Of a DNA stretch of 64,000 nt, positions 22,711 through 52,750 are shown piece after piece. The stretch is taken from assembly GCA_963667465.2 (NCBI GenBank), contig CAXXDN010000002.1, forward strand, positions 288,001-352,000, given 5' to 3'. The stretch's first letter is position 1. Every line of letters begins with the position of its first letter. Source of the DNA: Dehalococcoidia bacterium. GTDB lineage: Bacteria; Chloroflexota; Dehalococcoidia; UBA2979. The translations under genes and the position numbers were made by a program. Below the pieces are notes generated by a model that saw nothing but the letters and a program-made list of their open reading frames with translations, searched no databases and was not told the origin of the DNA.

Positions 22711-23577
22711 CTACGCCTCGGCCTGGTCGTAGCCCTCGTCGATGTGCTCGAAGCGCCTCGCGACGACGCGGCGCGTCTCCGTGTGGGTGAGGATGTAGGC
22801 GCGCCGCTCGCGCACGCCCGCGAGGACCGCGCGGCCCACATCGAGCGGGTCGCGGCGTGCGTCGGGGGAGCGGCTCGGGTCACGCGGCGCGACGCGCTGC
22901 GCGATGATCGGCGCGGGGATGTCGCGCGCCGGTCCGAACGCGTCCTGCCGGTTGCGTTGCGCCTCGCCGATGCGCGTGTGCGTGGCGCCGGGGCAGAACA
23001 GCGTGACGTCGATGCCCCCGGGCGCCAACTCGAGGCGCAGCGACTCGGTCAGCCCGACGACGGCGAACTTGGAGGCGACGTAACCGCCGAGGTTGCCGCC
23101 GCCGCGCCCGGCGACGAGCCCGGACATCGACGACGTGTTGATGATCTGAGCGCGTGTGCCGTCCTCGTCTGGCTCCTGCTCTTGCATGCGCGGCACGAAG
23201 ACCTGCACGCCGTTGAGCACCCCGTAGAGGTTCACGGCGAGCATCCAGTCGAGGTCGCTCGCCGGCATCTCGGCCGTTGGGCCGAAGACCAGCACCCCGG
23301 CATTGTTGAACAGCACGTCGACGGCGCCGAACTCGCCGTAGGCCATGTCGGCCAGCGCGCCCACCGAGGCCGGGTCGGACACGTCGGCGGAAGCCCCCAG
23401 GCTGCGCACGCCGTGCTCGCGCACGAGCGCCGCCGTCTCCTCCGCCGCGCCGCCCTCGATGTCCGCCACGACGACGTGCATGCCCAGCTCCGCCGCGGCG
23501 AGGCAGATGCCGCGCCCGATCCCGCTGCCACCGCCCGTCACCACCGCCACGCGCCCTCCGAGGTCACGCATCGCCAT
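22711..23577 (-). CDS. SDR family oxidoreductase
   Basis: TGGGSGIG, NNAG, YVASK. Confidence 0.93.
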   Translation of the reverse strand: MAMRDLGGRVAVVTGGGSGIGRGICLAAAELGMHVVVADIEGGAAEETAALVREHGVRSLGASADVSDPASVGALADMAYGEFGAVDVLFNNAGVLVFGPTAEMPASDLDWMLAVNLYGVLNGVQVFVPRMQEQEPDEDGTRAQIINTSSMSGLVAGRGGGNLGGYVASKFAVVGLTESLRLELAPGGIDVTLFCPGATHTRIGEAQRNRQDAFGPARDIPAPIIAQRVAPRDPSRSPDARRDPLDVGRAVLAGVRERRAYILTHTETRRVVARRFEHIDEGYDQAEA

Positions 23578-24607
23578 CGTCCTTTCCCGCGCCGTTCGTT
23601 CCGGTCAGGCCAAACTCCTCGGCCAGCAGCTCGTAGGAGCGCAGCCGGTCCTTGTAGTCGTACGTGATCGTCACGACCACGAACTCGTCGACCGCGAGCT
23701 CCCGGGCGAGCGCCTCGAGGCGATCGCGCAGGCGCTGCGGGCCGCCGACGAGGCTGGTCTGCTTCTGATACTCGATGAAGTCGAGCTCGGGCTGTGAGAG
23801 GCGCTCGGCCTCGGGGTCGTCGGGTGGAGGCACGCCGATGCGCAGGCCCTGGCGATTGCGCAGGCGCCACAGCCAGCGGCTCATCGCCAGCCGCTCGGCC
23901 TCCTCGTCCGTCTCGGCGCAGAGTGCGGAGACGCCGGCATTGACGAGTGGCTCGTCGAGCCACTGCGAGGGCCGGAAGAGGCGCCGGTAGAGCGTGATCG
24001 CCTCGCCGGCCCACTCGGCCTGGATGAAGTGCGCGAAGGAGAAGGGCAGCCCCTGCTCCGCCGCCGTGCTGGCGCTGTCCAGCGAGGAGCCGAGCAGCCA
24101 CGGCGTCGGGACGCTCTCGCCGCGCGGCTGGGCGTGGATGCCGGTCAGCGGGTGGCCCTCGGGCAGCTCGTCGCGGAGCAGCCGCATCAGGTCGGCGACC
24201 TGGCGCGGGTAGTGAGCGACATCGCGCATGCCCGGCCCCGGCGCGAGCGCCGCCGAGGTGCGGCCGTCCGTGCCCGGCGCGCGCCCCAGCCCGAGGTCGA
24301 TGCGGCCGGGGAACATCGTCTCCAGCATCCGGAACTGCTCGGCCACCTTGAGCGACGAGTAATGCGGCAGCATCACGCCGCCCGAGCCCACGCGAATGCG
24401 CGACGTCACCGAGGCGACGCGCGGGATCAGCACCTCGGGCGCGGCGCAGGCGAGCCCGCTGCTGTTGTGGTGCTCCGCCAGCCAGTAGCGGGTGTAGCCG
24501 AGCCGCTCTGTCGCCTGCGCGAGCTGCAGCGTCTCCTCGATCGCCCCGGCGGCCGTGCCGCCCTGGCGGATCGGCGACTGATCGAGGACGCCGAGGGTGA
24601 TCGCCAC
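23564..24607 (-). CDS. LLM-class flavin-dependent oxidoreductase (luciferase-like, YhbW type)
   Basis: LDQSP, RYWLAEHH, GSGGVMLPHYS, GRIDLGLGRAPG. Confidence 0.92.
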   Translation of the reverse strand: MAITLGVLDQSPIRQGGTAAGAIEETLQLAQATERLGYTRYWLAEHHNSSGLACAAPEVLIPRVASVTSRIRVGSGGVMLPHYSSLKVAEQFRMLETMFPGRIDLGLGRAPGTDGRTSAALAPGPGMRDVAHYPRQVADLMRLLRDELPEGHPLTGIHAQPRGESVPTPWLLGSSLDSASTAAEQGLPFSFAHFIQAEWAGEAITLYRRLFRPSQWLDEPLVNAGVSALCAETDEEAERLAMSRWLWRLRNRQGLRIGVPPPDDPEAERLSQPELDFIEYQKQTSLVGGPQRLRDRLEALARELAVDEFVVVTITYDYKDRLRSYELLAEEFGLTGTNGAGKDDGDA

Positions 24608-24744
24608 GCTGCCGCTCCGTCCGCTCGCGCTGTTGCGTTACGCGTCAGGGTACCGCGAGCGTCGCTCTGCGGCGCGGGGGCGCCGGACGCAAAGCGGGCG
24701 CGCTCATGGCGCGCCCGCTGGCTGTGCCGCGCTAGGTGGCGGCC

Positions 24745-25170
24745 TTACGAGGCGACCGGCCTCCACTGCGGCAGCGTCCAGTCGTCGTCGACCTTCTCGA
24801 AGTAGACCTCGACGGGCAGGTCGCAGACGGCTTCCTCGACGGGGATGTCGACGTTGCCCATCATGCGCAGGCCCTCGTCGAGCTGGATCACTCCGAAGAT
24901 GTAGGGCACACGCTCCTGGAACCATGGATCCTGCGCCTGGGCGATGATCGTGAAGGTGTGGAGCCGCCCCTTGCCGCTCACCTCCACCCACTCGTAGTCG
25001 TTGGAGAAGCAGTGCGGGAGCGGGCAGAACTCGCGTGGGTACCAGAACAGCCGGCTGCAGGCGTTGCAGCGCTGGACCGTGAGCCGCTCCTCCTTCGTCG
25101 CCTCCCAGAAGGGCTCGGTGAGTGCGTTCGCCTGCGGTACGGGCCGCTTCGGGCCATCGTCGTTGGTCAT
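24745..25170 (-). CDS. Zn-ribbon/OB-fold (DUF35, ChsH2-like) thiolase partner
   Basis: PFWEA, QRCNAC, CPLPHC, SGKGRLHTFT, LDEGLRM. Confidence 0.92.
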   Translation of the reverse strand: MTNDDGPKRPVPQANALTEPFWEATKEERLTVQRCNACSRLFWYPREFCPLPHCFSNDYEWVEVSGKGRLHTFTIIAQAQDPWFQERVPYIFGVIQLDEGLRMMGNVDIPVEEAVCDLPVEVYFEKVDDDWTLPQWRPVAS

Positions 25171-25259
25171 CGTCCGCGTCCCCTCCTGCTCCTGTCACCC
25201 GCCGCCACTGGAGGCGGCGGGCGCGCTCCGGCGCTTCGTTCAAGGTGGCTACCGTTTGG

Positions 25260-26426
25260 TTACTTGGGGTCCTTCCCGAGGACCAGTGAGCACATCACGC
25301 TCAGTCCGCCACCTCAGCCGTTGACGAAGCAGTAATCCACCGTTTCCTTCTGGCGGCCCTCGCCGCGGCCCATCAGCTGGCGCACCGCCTCCGTGGCGTG
25401 CGACATGCCTCCGGCGGTGCCGGGCTGGCCGAACGAGAGCTGGCCGCCGTGGGTGTTCACGGCGATGCCGTCGCTCTTGTAGGTGACGTCCTCGTTCGCG
25501 AAGTACGTTCCGCCCTCGCCCTTGGGGGCGAAGCCGGCGTCCTCGAACTCGATGATCACCGTGATCGTGTAGCAGTCGTACAGCGAGGCGATGTCCATCT
25601 CGTTGGGCCCAACGCCGGCCATCTTGTAGGCGGCGCGGGCCGAGAGCTCGACCGGGGACTTCGTCATGCGGTCCACGTAGGTGATGCCCGGCACGCCGCG
25701 GTCCATCGAGTGACCGACGCCGAGGATGTAGACGGGGTCGTGCGGGGATGACTCGACGGCCTCCGGGCGGCTCACCATCAGCGCCGCGGCGCCGAGGGTC
25801 GGCATCACGCACTCGAGCAGGGTCAGCGGGTTCGCGACCATGCGCGAGTTGAGCACATCGTCGGTGGTCGCGGGGGTGCCGTAGAAGGCCGCATCCGGGT
25901 TCGCCTGGGCGTTCTCCCGCTGCTGCACCGCGATCGCGACGCGCTCCTCGTCGGTGAGGCCGAACTCGTGCTTGTAGCGGTTGGCGACCAGCGCGTACCA
26001 GAAGTTCGCGCCGGGGCCCGGTCCGAACGGACCGGCGAACTGCGGGAACTGGCCGCCGATGGCGCCACCACCGCCGCCGCCGAAGCCGCCGACCTCGCCG
26101 GAGGTGACCAGGCAGAGCACGTTGTTGGCCAGTCCGGAATTGACGGCCATCGCCGCGATGGCGACCGACGTGGGGCCGGACGAGCCCATCATGTTCACGC
26201 CGTGCGCCCAGGTCGGCTGGATGCCGAGGGTCTCCGCGAACTCACAGGTGTTGAGGAAGGGGATCTCCGTGATCAGCCCGTCCACCTGCTCCTTGAGCAG
26301 GCCCGAGTCCTCGATGCAGAGGCGCGCCGCCTCCTGCGCCAGGCCGGGGCCGGTGCGGCCGGGCTTGCGCCGCTCCGGCTTCAGTTCGCCGATTCCGATG
26401 ATCGAGGCCGCTCCGCGCAGGCTCAT
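25260..26426 (-). CDS. thiolase-superfamily (SCP-x/Ltp2-like) protein with in-frame UGA at 25314-25316, putative selenocysteine
   Basis: YDCYT, NTHGGQLS, EAVRQL; after the UGA the frame continues GGGLSVMCSLVLGKDPK-TAA, completing the usual C-terminal strand. Confidence 0.85.
25280..25307 (-). promoter_or_regulatory. putative SECIS hairpin of the thiolase-like gene
   Basis: RNA ggac-UGAGCGU-gau-GUGCUCA-cug-gucc; upper stem starts 11 nt after the UGA and the loop starts with G. Confidence 0.5.
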
Positions 26427-26652
26427 CGGCAGCTCCTCCCGCTCGCGTCTGGGCAGGCTCGCGAATGGCAGATCGGTTCCCGCCCTTCGCGTCTTCATCG
26501 AATCTAACAGTCCGCGAGCAGGCTAGCGAACCCTTGACTTTGCTCCAACGCTACATAACGGCAGAAAATTGGCGCCGATTCCGGAATCGGCGCACGCGGG
26601 TGCGATCCGGCCGCCCGACGGCGCTAGAATCCGAAACCGAGGGAGGCCGCCC

Positions 26653-26935: not shown

Positions 26936-27492
26936 ATGAGCAACACGATCCGGGTCTACGACCCCACGGGCCACGCCCCCGTCGAGCAGTACCCGCTGGC
27001 GCCGCTGCCCGCCTCGCTCGACGGCCTGCGCCCCGGCATCGTCGAGAACCGCAAGGCCAACGCTGGCCTGCTGATGCGGCAGCTGGTCGCGGGCCTGCGC
27101 GAACACTTCGAGCTCGGCGAGCTGACGACGATCGGCAAGCCGAGCGCCGGACCGCCGACGAAGCGCAACGAGCGCAAGCTCGTGGAGGGAGCCGACTTCG
27201 CTCTCATCGGATCGAGCGACTGAGGATCCTGCACGGCGTGGAGTGTCCACGCCTCCATCCTCTTCGAGCGGCAGGGCATCCCCACCGTCAACATCACCAC
27301 CGAGGCGTTCGTCAGCCTGTTCGAGCTCGAGGCCGAGCAGCGCGGCATGCCGGACCTGCGCTACATCGTGGTGCCGCACCCGATCGGCGGCATCCGGGAA
27401 GACGCCGTCGCCGAGAAGGCCCGCGCCTCCATCCGGACCTGCTGGCGTCGCTTACGCCCGAGCCCGTGCCGATCGCCGGTGGCGACCGATGA
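26936..27492 (+). CDS. UGSC-family selenoprotein (Sec UGA 27221-27223; apparent 1-nt frameshift near 27433)
   Basis: GAC TGA GGA TCC TGC = D-U-G-S-C, then TAWSVH...GIPTV...F...VPHPIGG; the plausible C-terminus PDLLASLT...GDR* lies in a shifted frame and overlaps the next ATG. Confidence 0.85.
27235..27253 (+). promoter_or_regulatory. SECIS hairpin of the UGSC gene
   Basis: GGCGTGGA-gtg-TCCACGCC perfect 8-bp stem, 11 nt downstream of the UGA. Confidence 0.7.
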
Positions 27493-28610
27493 CGACGGGC
27501 GCCACGTCCCGCCTCGGCGATCCCGCGGCGCTGGTCGAGCTGCCCGCCGATCCGGGCGAGCTGCACGACGCCTTCGCCGAGCGCGGCTGGTCGGACGGCC
27601 TGCCCGTCATCCCGCCCACCGAGGAGCGGGTCGAGGCGATGCTCGCCTACACCGATCGCGATCGGCGCGAGGTGCTGGGCGTGCTGCCGCCTCGCCGCGG
27701 CGTGGCGACCATCGAGGTGGTGGCGATCAACGCCGTCCTCGCGGGCTGCGAGCCGCGCGCGCTGCCGCTGCTGCTGGCGGCGGTGCAGGGCATCGTGCAG
27801 CCGCAGTTCAACCTCAGCGGCATCAACGCGACGACGCACCCGTGCGCGGTGCTGGTGCTCGTCAACGGCCCAATCGGGCGCGAGCTGGGGGTGCACGGCG
27901 GCCCCGGCTGCTACGGCCCCGGCTTTCGCGCGAACGCAACGATCGGGCGCGCGATCCGGCTGCTGCTGCTCAACGTTGCGGGCGCCTCGCCCGGTCACGG
28001 CGACCGCGCCACGCAGGGCACGCCCGCCAAGTTCGCGCTCTGCCTCGCGGAGAACGAGGAGGCCAGCCCGTGGCCGCCGTTCCACACCACGCGCGGCTTC
28101 GAGCCGGAGGACAGCACGGTCACCGTCGCCGCCAGCGAGGGTCCGCACAACATCCAGGAGCACGGCAGCAACACCGCGCTCGGCGTCCTGCAGACGGTCG
28201 CCGGCGCGCTCGGGCAAGCGGGGAGCAACAACATCCTCAGCCGTGGCGAGCCGCTGCTCGCGCTTGGCCCCGAGCACGCCGCGACGATCGCCTACGAGGG
28301 TTGGACCCGCGAGGGTGTCCAGCAGTACGTCCACGAGCACGCGCGCTACCCCGCGTCGCGGCTCTCACCTGAGTTCCTCGAGTCCGTCAACGTGCGCATC
28401 GAGCCGGAGTCGGGGCTCGTTCAGTTCCCGGCGGACGCGCTGCTCCCAATCGTCAACGAGCCGGAGCACCTGCAGCTCTTCGTCGCCGGCGGGCCGGGCA
28501 AGCACTCCTCGTGGCTGCCGACCTTCGGACAGCGCACCCAGCCGGTCACGACCGTGATCGCCGACCGCTTCGGTCGCCCCGTCGGCAGCGTCGAGGACCT
28601 TCGCGGCTAA
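27489..28610 (+). CDS. UGSC-associated conserved protein (GWSDGLPVIPPT family)
   Basis: GWSDGLPVIPPTEERV, AINAVLAGC, ANATIGRA, ENEEASPW, VAGGPG; ATGA overlap. Confidence 0.85.
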   Translation: MTTGATSRLGDPAALVELPADPGELHDAFAERGWSDGLPVIPPTEERVEAMLAYTDRDRREVLGVLPPRRGVATIEVVAINAVLAGCEPRALPLLLAAVQGIVQPQFNLSGINATTHPCAVLVLVNGPIGRELGVHGGPGCYGPGFRANATIGRAIRLLLLNVAGASPGHGDRATQGTPAKFALCLAENEEASPWPPFHTTRGFEPEDSTVTVAASEGPHNIQEHGSNTALGVLQTVAGALGQAGSNNILSRGEPLLALGPEHAATIAYEGWTREGVQQYVHEHARYPASRLSPEFLESVNVRIEPESGLVQFPADALLPIVNEPEHLQLFVAGGPGKHSSWLPTFGQRTQPVTTVIADRFGRPVGSVEDLRG

Positions 28611-36624: not shown

Positions 36625-37056
36625 CTACGCGAGCACCGCCTCGATCTGCGCGATGTGCTCCTCGCGGTGGGGCCAGCGGCGGAACGTGTACTCCTGCCCC
36701 GCCTCGCGCAGCGCAGCGCGCTGCTCTGCCGAGAGGCCCTGCGAGGTCGCGTCGAGCCGTGCGGCCGCCTCGACGGCCGCACGGCCGGCCGCTGCCGGGT
36801 CGAACAGTGCCGCGATCGCTTCGAGCGTCTGATTGACTGTCTCGTCCTCGGACGGAATGGCCTCGCCCAGCGCGTGGCCGCGCAACGCGACCGCCTGGCG
36901 GGCGTCCCAGAAGGCGAGGTGGACGAGCGCGAAGGCCACCGTCCAGCCGCCACCGAGCGAGCGATCGAGGTCGGCGCTGCCAAGGCGGGCGACGAGGTCG
37001 CCCAGGCGCGTGGTCGCCTCGGCGTTGCGTTGCAGGTCGGTGTCGTGGTCGCTCAT
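36625..37056 (-). CDS. DinB/maleylpyruvate isomerase-like protein
   Basis: GWTVAFALVHLAFWD, HREEHIAQI. Confidence 0.75.
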   Translation of the reverse strand: MSDHDTDLQRNAEATTRLGDLVARLGSADLDRSLGGGWTVAFALVHLAFWDARQAVALRGHALGEAIPSEDETVNQTLEAIAALFDPAAAGRAAVEAAARLDATSQGLSAEQRAALREAGQEYTFRRWPHREEHIAQIEAVLA

Positions 37057-37183
37057 CTTGCCTCCGCCGGGTCATTGTCCCGGTGGTGTGTCCATGCGGC
37101 CAGCGCGTCCGGCTCGATGCTTTGCGCCGGGGCGGCTAGCATGGCGCCCACCAAGCCGCCGCCGAGTTGATGACGGAGCCGCT

Positions 37184-38341
37184 ATGCCGCGCAAGGATCT
37201 GCATGACGTCGTGATCGTCGGCGCGTACAACACGGTGCAGTCGCGCTATCTCAAGGAGCACAGCTCCTTCTCGATCACCCTCGATGCGGTGAAGGGCGCG
37301 ATTGCCGACGCCGGCCTCCAGGTCTCCGACATCGACGGGGTCAACGTCAGCACCGGCACCGGTCACGGAGGCGGGCAGCGCCAGTGGGTGCACCAGCTCG
37401 GAGGCCGGCCAACCTGGGTCGGCGTCGCGAACATGGGCATCCCCGCCGTGCTTCAGGCAGCTGCCGCCATCGCCGCCGGGTACGCCAACACCGTGGTCGT
37501 CGGCAACGGCCAGGCCGGGGCTTACACGGAGCGCGCCTCGACGGCGCCGTGGACGCGTCCCTCCAACGAGTTCGTCGAGTGCTTCGGCCTCTACACCGCC
37601 GCCGAGTTCGCGCTGATCGCGCAGCGCCACATGCACATGTACGACACGGAGCCCGAGCACCTCGCCGAGGTCGCCTCGGCGATCCGCACGCACGGCGGGA
37701 TGAACCCGGACGCGGTCTACACCGGGCGGGTCATCACCCCCGACGACGTGCTCAACTCGGCAATGATCGCCGACCCTTTCCACCTGCTGGACTGCGCGAT
37801 GACCAGCGAGGGCGGCGCCGCCATGGTGCTCACCACCGCCGAGCGCGCGCGCGACCTCGATGTCACGCCGATCCACATCCTTGGCGGTGGCCTGGACGGG
37901 CGGGGGCAGGCCTACGTCGCGGGGCCGCTCTGGCACGTCACGGGCGATGTCGGTTCGTTCTCCTCGCGGCAGGCGTTCGAGGCCTGCGGCCTCGGTCCGT
38001 CCGACATCGACGTGTGCGAGTTCTACGACCCGTTCTCGTTCGAGATCATCCGCCAGTTCGAGGCCTTCGGGTTCTGCGAGGTCGGCGAGGGCGGCCCGTT
38101 CGTAATGGACGGCCGCATCCGCGTCGGCGGCGAGTTCCCCGTCTGCACCGACGGCGGCACGATGTCGTTTGCCCACCCCGGCACTGCCCAGTTGCTGCAG
38201 AAGGTGATCTCCGGCACGAAGCAGCTGCGCGGCGAGGCCGGCAACCGCCAGGTCGAGGGCGCCGAGGTCGCGATGTGCACGAACGGCGGCGCGGGCGCGC
38301 TCTTCACCGACGTGGTCCTGCTCGGCCGGGAGGCGCCGTAG
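37184..38341 (+). CDS. thiolase-superfamily protein (SCP-x-like)
   Basis: FHLLDC, EFYDPFS, TDGGTMSFAH, QLRGEAGNRQV. Confidence 0.9.
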   Translation: MPRKDLHDVVIVGAYNTVQSRYLKEHSSFSITLDAVKGAIADAGLQVSDIDGVNVSTGTGHGGGQRQWVHQLGGRPTWVGVANMGIPAVLQAAAAIAAGYANTVVVGNGQAGAYTERASTAPWTRPSNEFVECFGLYTAAEFALIAQRHMHMYDTEPEHLAEVASAIRTHGGMNPDAVYTGRVITPDDVLNSAMIADPFHLLDCAMTSEGGAAMVLTTAERARDLDVTPIHILGGGLDGRGQAYVAGPLWHVTGDVGSFSSRQAFEACGLGPSDIDVCEFYDPFSFEIIRQFEAFGFCEVGEGGPFVMDGRIRVGGEFPVCTDGGTMSFAHPGTAQLLQKVISGTKQLRGEAGNRQVEGAEVAMCTNGGAGALFTDVVLLGREAP

Positions 38342-51439: not shown

Positions 51440-52621
51440 TTACGCGCCGTCGGCGGAGAGGATCAGCGCGCTCGTTGGGACGCCCGTCCCGGCGGTTGCG
51501 AGGGCGGTCCGGGGGCGGCGCTCCAGCTGGTTCACTGCGTCGCCGCGGATCTGGCGCGCGGCCTCCGTGATCATGCTGAAGCCGTGCAGGTAGCCGTCTG
51601 CGAGCTGCCCGCCGTGCGTGTTGAGCGGGATGTCGCCCTCGAGGGTGGTCCGGCCCTCGCGGAATAGCTCGTGGGCCGCGCCGGGCGCGGCGAACCCATA
51701 GGCCTCGAGCGACATCAGCACCATCGGCGTGAAGTGGTCGTAGAGCTGCAGCGTCTCCATGTCGCCCGGCTCCATCTCGGCCACGCGGTAGACCTCGCGC
51801 GCTGTCTCCTCGGCCTCTTCGAGTACGGACATGCTGTCGCGCTGGTAGCTGGTCATCGACTCGGTGCGGCTGCCGGTGCCCTGCGCGGCGCCGGTGATGT
51901 ACACGGGCGGACGCCTGGAGCGTCCGCTCGCCGCCAGCTCCCGCGCCTTCTCCGCCGAGACGACGACGACGGCGCTGCCGCCGTCCGTCTCGAGGCAGCA
52001 GTCGAGCAGCCGCAGCGGCTCCGAGATCCAGCGCGAGTTGTGGTGGTCCTCGAGGGTGACGGTGCGGCCGTACTGCATCGCGTGCGGGTTGATTGCGCCG
52101 TTGTTGCGGATCTGCACGGCGCAGAGGCCGAACGCCTCGGTGGTGAGGTCGTAGTCGTTGAGGTAGCGCCGCCCGAACATCGCGACCCACTGCACGGGGG
52201 TGACGAGGCCGACGGGGATGCGGTACTGCATCCCGTCGGGGACGTAGCGGCCGGCGCGCGAGCGGCTGGCCGGCATCAGCGAGCGGCGGATCGAGCGGAA
52301 GCAGACGACGACGTCGGCCTGCCCGGCGGCGATCGCCGCGGCCGCATGCACGACGGTGCCGACAGAGCCGCCGCCGCCGTGCGGGATCTCGCTGAAGAAG
52401 CGCAGGTTCTGGATGCCGAGGCTGCGCATGATGTCGATCTCGAAGAGGTCGGTGTTGGCGTGCATCTTCACGATCGCGTCGACGTCGCCAGGCGTGAGCC
52501 CGGCGTCCTCGAGCGCCGCGGTGATCGCTTCGAGGGCGAGTTGCAGGTTGGAGCGTCCGGCGTTGCGCGAGAACTCCGTCTCGCCCACCCCCACGATCGC
52601 CGTCCGGTTGCGAACGCTCAC
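51440..52621 (-). CDS. lipid-transfer protein / Ltp2-like thiolase-fold enzyme
   Basis: HGGGG, LLDCCLETDGG, YDHFTP, NTHGGQL..GYLHG, TAGTGVPTSALIL. Confidence 0.9.
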   Translation of the reverse strand: MSVRNRTAIVGVGETEFSRNAGRSNLQLALEAITAALEDAGLTPGDVDAIVKMHANTDLFEIDIMRSLGIQNLRFFSEIPHGGGGSVGTVVHAAAAIAAGQADVVVCFRSIRRSLMPASRSRAGRYVPDGMQYRIPVGLVTPVQWVAMFGRRYLNDYDLTTEAFGLCAVQIRNNGAINPHAMQYGRTVTLEDHHNSRWISEPLRLLDCCLETDGGSAVVVVSAEKARELAASGRSRRPPVYITGAAQGTGSRTESMTSYQRDSMSVLEEAEETAREVYRVAEMEPGDMETLQLYDHFTPMVLMSLEAYGFAAPGAAHELFREGRTTLEGDIPLNTHGGQLADGYLHGFSMITEAARQIRGDAVNQLERRPRTALATAGTGVPTSALILSADGA

Positions 52622-52750
52622 GCCGCCTCCCTCGCGCGCGTTGCGAGGATAGCGGAGCGGGCGAGTGGCGTGGGGGGAGACGTCACAAGGACAGAGACCG
52701 CCACGAGGGCGGTCTCGACCCTGCGGCCGGACGCTGACGGCGAGTGCTCC

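Follow-up and report, generated by a model that had tools for sequence, protein, structure and literature searches.

A predicted, apparently undescribed selenoprotein family: a selenocysteine variant of Sal-type thiolase-fold aldolases in a Dehalococcoidia bacterium

A 64,000-nucleotide (nt) stretch of the genome of a Dehalococcoidia bacterium (GenBank assembly GCA_963667465.2, contig CAXXDN010000002.1, positions 288,001 to 352,000; here called the window) carries on its minus strand, at positions 25260 to 26426, a gene for a thiolase-fold protein whose frame contains a UGA at codon 371. Comparison with related sequences makes it very probable that this UGA is a genuine selenocysteine (Sec) codon, and the gene would then stand for an apparently undescribed but real selenoprotein family, a Sec variant of the Sal-type thiolase-fold aldolases. 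As the overall explanation, we consider it likely that the product is a Sec-bearing member of the Sal/Ltp2 branch of the thiolase fold, in which Sec acts at the alpha-carbon (C-alpha) of the substrate in a retained retro-aldol step.

A thiolase-fold reading frame continues past an in-frame UGA

Read on the minus strand from the ATG at 26426, the frame proceeds to ...ETVDYCFVNG, reaches TGA at codon 371, and continues through GGGLSVMCSLVLGKDPK to TAA; an earlier note on this DNA had read the same frame, with the open reading frame (ORF) ending at YCFVNG-UGA and running on to a TAA. The features of the gene are as follows.

25260..26426, minus strand: full selenoprotein gene for a 388-residue product in which residue 371 is Sec, from translation with TGA read as U (Sec) and from family matches that reach the profile ends
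25314..25316, minus strand: in-frame UGA, codon 371, read as Sec; TGA recurs at the same column in relatives
25260..25313, minus strand: 17 codons (GGGLSVMCSLVLGKDPK) and TAA (25262-25260), last beta-strand of the fold, from peptide conservation, codon periodicity, and model strands
26433..26439, minus strand: Shine-Dalgarno-like GGAGGAG, 6 nt 5' of the ATG at 26426, read directly from the sequence; homologs begin MSLRG
26184..26186, minus strand: codon of Gly81, at the site of the thiolase nucleophilic Cys, in NMMGSSG; invariant in 17 Sec-type proteins
25569..25580, minus strand: YDCY motif (Tyr283-Asp284-Cys285-Tyr286), from alignment to 9myr; 19 relatives have TGA instead of the Cys codon
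25278..25315, minus strand: SECIS (selenocysteine insertion sequence)-like stem-loop with a core hairpin at 25287-25303 (6 bp, 5-nt loop UGAUG), from predicted folds

Family profiles aligned through to the C terminus beyond the UGA, as did full-length homologs. Residues 2-385 of the read-through product matched positions 5-380 of the 384 positions of NCBIfam PRK06158 (248.9 bits, below the cut-off of 421), and residues 251-385 matched positions 12-144 of the 144 positions of Pfam Thiolase_C_1. In the AlphaFold2 model of the read-through protein (predicted local distance difference test score, 89.1; predicted template modeling score, 0.92), the final beta-hairpin was formed by strands 365-372 and 377-384, so that termination after Gly370 would leave the product without a core strand and without the loop of the oxyanion hole. 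In addition, the 13 codons after the UGA showed entropies of 0.54, 0.44, and 1.20 at codon positions 1, 2, and 3, respectively, in 40 distinct sequences, and the peptide that they encode was kept in relatives as GGxxSxM[CAT][ST]L[VI]LG.

These data bear on the simplest alternative, namely, that UGA 371 is an ordinary stop, that the product has 370 residues, and that the downstream conservation has another source, such as the upstream region of the adjacent DUF35 gene. Gene callers and public annotation do end genes at this codon (46 of 120 database proteins end at ...NG, some of them named "thiolase family protein"), and the hairpin of a single sequence is not significant. However, the truncated protein would be without its last core beta-strand and the oxyanion-hole glycine loop, the periodicity and the conserved peptide lie in the UGA's own frame, full-length homologs align through the region, and the distribution of selA follows that of the TGA forms (see below). 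An ordinary stop is therefore highly improbable.

UGA recurs at column 371 among relatives

TGA was present at column 371 in relatives ranging from 100% down to about 41% identity. Among the best 120 database homologs, 46 ended exactly at ...[VI]NG (93% to 47% identity), while the rest comprised 69 full-length proteins with Asn at the column, 3 with Ser, 1 with Lys, and 1 that was frameshifted. An order-wide scan yielded matches at E <= 1e-80 in 47 of 99 genomes, with exactly one in-frame TGA in 60 of the 78 matched places. In a phylum sample of 301 genomes, 8 matched at E <= 1e-60, and TGA forms were found in the window's genome and in genome G045. A pattern scan over all species, for which one genome per species was read through stops, gave 79 loci; column 371 was TGA in 29, Asn in 45 (and in one further locus, L099, that lay outside the motif), Ser in 4, and Cys in none of the 79. 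By title, 28 of these 29 TGA loci belonged to Chloroflexota, Dehalococcoidia, or SAR202 and 1 to Actinomycetota. A motif search in loci L013-L055 gave 38 rows, 30 of them with TGA at the column, and seven loci outside that search (L014, L038-L042, and L055) were read separately and all had TGA there. In every TGA-bearing locus that was read, the TGA lay at column 371. The earlier note had proposed to look in related genomes for UGA or Cys at this column with conserved downstream coding and had named Trp (TGG) in all close orthologs as the contrary outcome: UGA did recur, with conserved downstream coding, and orthologs did not have TGG there, but the Cys forms that it had also allowed for were almost absent.

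A variant subfamily, represented by L014 (G045:C6:411160-412311), reads ...AFVNT-TGA-RGYISDMSSLVLA, with the same TGA column and an R-G loop instead of G-G. The database proteins P0262 and P0264 stop at ...FVNT, like this variant.

The codon was also found outside the assembly. A DNA contig of sequencing run X6, covering 24734-25346, was identical across the TGA; a check of reads had been proposed earlier. An assembly error at this codon is unlikely, since so many separate assemblies share it. Contigs from RNA libraries of a relative with about 93% identity bridged the TGA (X15 record 2, 25268-26448; X16 record 8, 25281-25447), and none of the differences listed falls at codon 371 (there are 66 more differences). 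Because these contigs were assembled in RNA libraries, they offer a weak hint of expression, and the parts without cover are uninformative. The stretch or part of it was present in 20 of the 21 listed runs, several of them labeled sponge metagenome. The region 24700-26500 or its close relatives occurred mainly in sponge metagenome or metatranscriptome runs (X6, X7, X13, X17, and X18), and the window's organism may be a sponge associate.

A predicted hairpin follows the UGA

In the predicted fold, a 10-nt spacer after the UGA is followed by UGAGCG/UGCUCA pairing around UGAUG, and a longer outer stem encloses the UGA. The hairpin described in the earlier note was thus present, with 6 bp and a 5-nt loop rather than the seventh, G-U pair and 3-nt loop that had been drawn. 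A hairpin was seen in all 29 of the folds listed. For nt 4-42 after the codon, the mean minimum free energy (MFE) was -13.2 kcal/mol in the Sec forms (n=38 distinct) versus -9.8 in non-Sec homologs (n=55), a comparison for which Mann-Whitney p-values overstate independence, the sequences being kin; the mean z values against synonymous-codon resampling were -1.28 and -0.36, respectively. Pair 14-30 was C-G in 20 sequences but U-A in another 9. In addition, the number of cells with change on both sides in stem register A, 13, was reached by 0 of 500 shuffles and was the sole measure that beat all shuffles. Comparison with relatives, and not the single fold, is what appears to lift this predicted hairpin above chance.

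The apical loops of the hairpins in two further genes of the window's genome, that for a UGSC-motif selenoprotein and selD, lie at a similar distance from their UGA. The UGSC gene, 1.9 kb away, has its UGA at 27221-27223 and a hairpin that starts 14 nt after the first base of this codon, a spacing comparable to that at codon 371, as had been pointed out before.

Selenocysteine machinery and genetic code

The window's genome (2.97 Mb, two contigs, 70% G+C) contained the complete Sec set whose presence the earlier note had wished to see confirmed: tRNA-SeC, selA (517 bits), selB (299 bits), and selD (358 bits). selD (G000 C1:106747-107682, L010) has its own in-frame TGA (...ASCGG-U-AGKLG...) followed by a strong hairpin, and SelD is therefore itself a selenoprotein in this genome. 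Across the order, 74 of 99 genomes had selA, and so did 39 of the 41 in which TGA forms occur; the two TGA-form genomes without it are fragmented assemblies from genera whose other members have selA. No TGA form was found in genera g178 and g181, which gave no selA match; two g178 genomes had stop-free homologs, and g181 gave no homolog match at the E-value cut-off used.

A further alternative is that UGA 371 is read as a standard amino acid (Trp, Gly, or Cys) through reassignment or near-cognate suppression. Read-through alone would explain the conserved downstream coding. Nevertheless, many genes with high GC3 (G+C content at third codon positions) in the window end with TGA, which shows that the code is not reassigned. 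The complete Sec machinery and the two other Sec genes (UGSC and selD), the hairpins after both TGA columns of the family at UGSC/selD spacing, and the alternation of TGA with TGC/TGT at the second column, described below, also argue against it. This decoding is accordingly very hard to credit.

A second selenocysteine column at the YDCY motif

In 19 distinct relatives, a second in-frame TGA lay exactly at the catalytic Cys of YDCY ("FYD*YT", that is, YDUY), and because of it many relatives fell out of the first alignment. The 105 distinct read-through proteins were distributed over the two columns as follows.

YDCY column Cys, column 371 Sec: 31 proteins
YDCY column Sec, column 371 Sec: 19 proteins
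YDCY column Cys, column 371 Asn: 46 proteins
YDCY column Ser, column 371 Ser: 7 proteins
YDCY column Ala, column 371 Asn: 2 proteins

Cys was the common state at the YDCY column, where TGA alternated with TGC/TGT. The TGA there was followed by its own hairpin at the same spacing, with an MFE of -11.4 (n=19) versus -8.6 in the non-TGA forms (n=84). The YDCY column is a classical Cys/Sec pair; a bile-acid side-chain aldolase from Comamonas testosteroni, CtSal, is reported to require the thiol of this residue (PMC12329534).

Column 371 behaved differently. A search of 1.84 billion representatives with a profile of the last 70 residues, in which Cys stood in for Sec, returned 96 proteins with a readable column among the best 150: Asn in 35, Asp in 17, Thr in 13, Ser in 7, Val in 5, Glu in 4, Gln in 3, Met in 3, Ala in 2, Ile in 2, and His, Tyr, Leu, and Cys in 1 each. 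The non-Sec homologs carry Asn, Ser, or Thr, so that Sec at this column has not simply taken the place of Cys.

In a quick maximum-likelihood tree with the Ser/Ser forms as its root, from which seven partial tandem copies at locus edges were left out, the Sec forms split into two clades (17 and 36 rows), and 45 Asn forms from many phyla made up a third; the tree gave no firm branching order for the three. On this tree, Sec was lost at least twice within the Sec clades. Two relatives, L022 and L112, lost both residues, with YDCY Cys replaced by Ala and Sec by Asn. Two reversions changed linked positions together. The residues that set Sec forms apart from non-Sec forms, in a first alignment whose Sec members were just the 31 with Cys in YDCY, were as follows.

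Position 366: Cys in Sec forms, Ala or Gly in non-Sec forms
Position 378: Met in Sec forms, Gln in non-Sec forms
Position 100: Ala in Sec forms, Cys in non-Sec forms

Judging from the strand limits in the model, Met378 would be the cross-strand neighbor of residue 371. Cys366 (U-5) was considered as a resolving Cys and set aside: it is Gly or Ala in 8 two-Sec forms and one one-Sec form, and a position five residues along the strand would be far from Sec.

The window's genome also encodes a paralog, L021 (C2:855652-856803, 61% identity), with U to N, C366 to A, and M378 to E changes, a long branch, and its own DUF35 gene downstream. This genome has one Sec-type copy, whereas some relatives have up to four; in genus relatives (L027 and L032-L036), another copy of the Sec type, 72-74% identical and followed up by a DUF35 gene of its own, lies in tandem about 1.85 kb upstream of the ortholog.

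Assignment to the Sal/Ltp2 branch and catalytic residues

In a sequence search, the closest solved chain was 9myr_A (E 8.3e-75), followed by 4u4e and then 6ok1, and a Foldseek search with the AlphaFold2 model gave the same ranking (top hit 9myr_A, template modeling [TM] score 0.91). The score against the classical thiolase model TIGR01930 was 18.5, with a cut-off of 240.55. The classical nucleophilic Cys, NEAF Asn, and GHP His were absent and replaced by Gly81, YDCY, and GQP, respectively; the lack of the usual N-terminal Cys in NMMGSSG (residues 78-84 of the read-through product) had already been noticed, and Gly81 occupies its site. The fingerprint of Ltp2 was also absent, with YDCY instead of YDHF and Thr at the Tyr344-aligned position. 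The protein is not a true thiolase but a member of the Sal/Ltp2 branch of this fold, which comprises retro-aldolases. Of the earlier suggestion that Sec sits in the active-site loop of a thiolase/DUF35 complex, the active-site loop, the thiolase fold, and an adjacent DUF35 gene have stood, but the enzyme is of the Sal/Ltp2 aldolase type (closest structure 9MYR) rather than a thiolase. Real thiolases with CIGGG are encoded elsewhere in the window's genome.

In CtSal (9MYR), Tyr302 and Cys304 of YDCY were reported to be essential for activity by mutagenesis, Gln347 and Gln352 were proposed to stabilize the thiolate, the oxyanion hole was proposed to be formed by Gln161 and the Gly391 backbone NH, and Gly was found in place of the thiolase nucleophilic Cys (PMC12329534). 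With a tag offset of 24 in the 9myr alignment, checked on Tyr302, the query residues Y283-D-C285-Y286 aligned with CtSal Y302-D-C304-Y305. Q329 and Q334 matched Gln347 and Gln352, and G373, the equivalent of Gly391, was invariant. In a 46-sequence alignment (A2), G81, Y283-D-C285-Y286, Q329, Q334, and G373 were conserved, Y283 and D284 being invariant and C285 at least 90% conserved. Sec371 aligned with CtSal Thr389, two residues before Gly391, and lies in the active-site loop.

A published structure-based alignment of a mycobacterial thiolase-like protein equates the thiolase C-X-G at 378-380, which contains the base Cys378, with N-G-G (PMC3406046). Because the Asn-type homologs of the present family read N-G-G at the same place, U371-G372-G373 corresponds to C378-x-G380. 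The position of Sec at the classical CxG Cys, claimed before, is backed by these published mappings (PMC3406046 and PMC12329534), although our own profile alignment stopped short of the loop: a direct hhalign mapping of Sec onto Cys378 of classical thiolases from this and related genomes ended at residue 358 and was given up. The thiolase set for that alignment had 11 rows, including two wrong-strand translations (L140 and L152).

Proposed mechanism and its alternatives

UGA 371 would be decoded as Sec by SelA, SelB, SelD, and tRNA-Sec, with translation ending at the UAA at 25262-25260, and the signal for Sec insertion is most likely the hairpin that lies within the final 17 codons. Enzymes of the Sal/Ltp2 branch, together with a DUF35 protein, carry out retro-aldol cleavage of 3-hydroxyacyl-coenzyme A (CoA) thioesters, and this activity is predicted here by family. 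The Sal catalytic set is retained: Tyr283, Cys285, Gln329, Gln334, and, at the site of the nucleophilic Cys, Gly81. Sec, as the first residue of U-G-G, would occupy the site of the thiolase catalytic base Cys378, two residues before the oxyanion-hole glycine. It would lie beside Cys285 over C-alpha of the bound acyl-CoA and take part in C-C cleavage, most likely as the proton donor/acceptor at C-alpha, the role that Cys378 has in thiolases. With Met378 instead of the Gln that Asn-type homologs have, the pocket would lose some of its polarity. Granted that residue 371 is Sec, we give an acid/base role in the retained aldolase reaction about an even chance.

Several points count against this interpretation as a whole. 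An acid/base role is unusual for Sec, which known enzymes use mostly in redox or nucleophilic chemistry. The proximity of Sec371 and Cys285 would follow from motif equivalence and published statements, and the counterpart of CtSal Gln161 is Ala140, beside a nearly invariant Asn141. Cys at column 371 is almost absent: it was found in 1 of the 96 readable proteins, P0228, a 38-residue fragment of Sec-clade type, and a word search of residues 335-388 seeded with Cys gave no Cys form, its 7 matches among 18 candidates all being truncated Sec forms. As to the hairpin, the fold of the 41 nt after the UGA in the window's sequence alone was not significant (MFE -14.6 kcal/mol, z = -1.32, 24 of 200 shuffles folding as well), and an Rfam search of 25150-25450 with E values up to 10 found no SECIS family and returned just a chance snoRNA (small nucleolar RNA) match. 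Column-wise covariation in 40 sequences was modest, with paired cells at 76% and 68% in the two stem registers, and a single consensus structure fits poorly because the stem register shifts between subgroups. Finally, the relatives are kin, so that counts and p-values overstate independence, and the records are mostly metagenome-assembled genomes.

A different chemistry is conceivable for a genuine selenoprotein, in which Sec371 and Cys285 (or the second Sec) form a covalent or redox pair with new chemistry at the acyl-CoA alpha-carbon or thioester. One route would be attack by the selenolate, followed by resolution through a selenenylsulfide or diselenide in the way of glycine or proline reductase. 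In another, the lost Cys nucleophile would be made good by a selenoester acyl-enzyme. A separate reductant would recycle the pair. Two chalcogen residues fill both alternative catalytic-base loops of the thiolase fold, and the residue that gave way to Sec is Asn or Thr and not Cys, which points to the gain of a function and not to the upgrading of a Cys. The shared gain and loss of these two residues (both lost in paralogs L022 and L112, to Ala and Asn), the Met for Gln at the +7 position, and the UxxC-motif UGSC selenoprotein gene that adjoins in the window's genus point the same way, as does the use of Sec in redox or nucleophilic steps by nearly all known Sec enzymes. Yet Tyr283, Asp284, Gln329, and Gln334 are invariant in the Sec forms, which argues that a beta-hydroxyl substrate and retro-aldol chemistry were kept, and the Sec-to-Asn reversion within the clade (the genome's own paralog L021) suggests related functions for the two forms. 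Moreover, no reductase or thioredoxin-like neighbor is conserved beyond one genus, and the module is without an electron-transfer domain. As an account of all the data, such a pair is unlikely; with Sec taken as given, it is possible, at rather less than an even chance. Its fullest form would make the protein the first thiolase-superfamily selenoenzyme with a new device, a Sec-Cys or Sec-Sec pair from both base loops that acts covalently or by redox at the acyl-CoA alpha-carbon (reductive C-alpha-X cleavage like that of glycine reductase, or a selenoester). That claim is doubtful; its setting would be sponge-associated and deep-ocean Chloroflexota, in which one genome can have as many as four Sec-type copies. 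The reading favored here keeps the retro-aldol reaction and makes Sec the proton donor/acceptor at C-alpha, because of the four invariant residues and because Sec and Asn forms interconvert on the tree.

Comparison with known systems

CtSal is the nearest known system, as both the best sequence match and the best fold match (39% identity at the TM score given above). It shares the YDCY Tyr and Cys, the two Gln, the Gly for the nucleophilic Cys, and the G-G loop that provides the oxyanion-hole NH, and it works with a DUF35 domain; here, a DUF35 partnership is predicted from gene adjacency. The two differ in that CtSal Thr389, Gln396, and Gln161 correspond to Sec371, Met378, and Ala140, and in that, for CtSal, a MaoC hydratase (Shy) carries the DUF35 as its C-terminal domain, whereas here it is a stand-alone protein of 141 amino acids (aa). 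The complex of TcLtp2 with ChsH2(DUF35) (6OK1; Foldseek TM 0.88) likewise combines a thiolase fold without the nucleophilic Cys, a DUF35 partner, and retro-aldol chemistry (predicted here), but Ltp2 has YDHF and a second Tyr (Tyr344), while the present protein has YDCY and no Tyr at the Tyr344 position.

Classical thiolases (Zoogloea ramigera type; TIGR01930) have the same fold, and Sec lies at the site of their C-x-G Cys378, but their CxS, NEAF, and GHP are Gly81, YDCY, and GQP here. SCP2-thiolases and SCP2-thiolase-like proteins (HDCF/YDCF) also take the catalytic Cys from the xDCx loop and not from CxG; they have no chalcogen in the CxG-equivalent loop, whereas here both loops are filled, with Cys or Sec in one and Sec in the other.

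Among selenoproteins, glycine reductase selenoprotein A (GrdA) is similar in being essentially without Cys homologs, and the deep-Sep authors name it as the single earlier case (PMC12013277). It is unrelated in fold and function, and the present family has a Cys/Sec pair at its second Sec column. Because Cys homologs are essentially absent, homology pipelines built on Cys/Sec pairs would overlook families of this kind. A crotonase/enoyl-CoA hydratase family selenoprotein, listed in a published table (PMC9312934), offers another case of an acyl-CoA-metabolism family with Sec members, with a different fold.

Genomic neighborhood

The genes next to the selenoprotein gene are as follows.

24745..25170, minus strand: DUF35 partner gene, ChsH2-type zinc ribbon and OB (oligonucleotide/oligosaccharide-binding) fold, 141 aa (Pfam PF12172, 9.5e-13; PF01796, 5.4e-19)
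23564-24607, minus strand: luciferase-like monooxygenase (Pfam PF00296; GC3 0.94)
22711-23577, minus strand: short-chain dehydrogenase (Pfam PF00106; GC3 0.94)
26936..27223 (to its UGA, 27221-27223), plus strand: UGSC-motif selenoprotein gene, divergent (...GSSDUGSC..., with a hairpin after the UGA)

A DUF35 homolog lay directly downstream in all related loci, Sec-type or not, except for four that end at a contig edge. By their position, the monooxygenase and dehydrogenase genes may form an operon with the selenoprotein and DUF35 genes. Within 1.5 kb of related loci, no conserved neighbor other than DUF35 was found; there were occasional tandem copies and occasional neighboring ORFs whose C-terminal ends we take to be acyl-CoA dehydrogenase-like.

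In the UGSC gene (26936-28610), the frame after the UGSC domain is stop-free for >299 codons into Arg/Ala-rich sequence and is overlapped by a 455-codon ORF in another frame (27243-28610; GC3 0.89, no Pfam match). This read-on may stem from a frameshift or from an assembly error, or there may be a second domain that is fused or overlaps; the Global Ocean Sampling (GOS) survey mentions UGSC fusions and describes the family as "likely" thioredoxin-fold (PMC2398784). The UGSC gene was not supported as a general redox partner, its adjacency being limited to five near-kin loci (L057 duplicates L031) and one weak match.

Two other thiolase-fold genes, already mentioned in the earlier note, were located in the window. 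That at 51440-52750 (minus strand) is of the Ltp2 type, with YDHF and the Tyr of GYLHG, as in the steroid side-chain aldolase TcLtp2, and hints at sterol-like side-chain catabolism in the organism. The other, at 36833-38341 (plus strand), has EFYDPFSF and CTNGGAGALF and is without the YDCY Cys.

Novelty and significance

Searches of the full-text literature (one of them covering 40 of its 53 listings) found no thiolase-fold selenoprotein, consistent with the earlier statement that thiolases were not known among selenoprotein families. The terms "thiolase," "acetyltransferase," "acyltransferase," and "lipid-transfer" were absent from the main texts of a 2026 review (PMC13188914), the deep-Sep paper (PMC12013277), the GOS survey (PMC2398784), and a 2022 review with a family table (PMC9312934), the supplements of which may list the family. 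Among NCBIfam models, no "(seleno)protein" model was reached by the read-through protein. In public annotation, these genes end after 365-372 residues or are broken into fragments, and the source databases call the shortened proteins "thiolase family protein" or "acetyl-CoA acetyltransferase." The family thereby exposes a blind spot of selenoprotein finders that require Cys homologs, a limit that the deep-Sep authors concede (PMC12013277).

The family is most likely large and multicopy in marine and sponge-associated Chloroflexota. At column 371, Sec replaces Asn or Thr, and the second Sec replaces a Cys that is proven to be catalytic in CtSal. Asn/Cys, Sec/Cys, and Sec/Sec forms thus make up a natural series for asking what selenium adds to C-C bond chemistry on CoA thioesters. 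For the organisms themselves, the supply of selenium may matter for the breakdown of organic matter or sterol side chains by sponge symbionts and SAR202-type bacteria.

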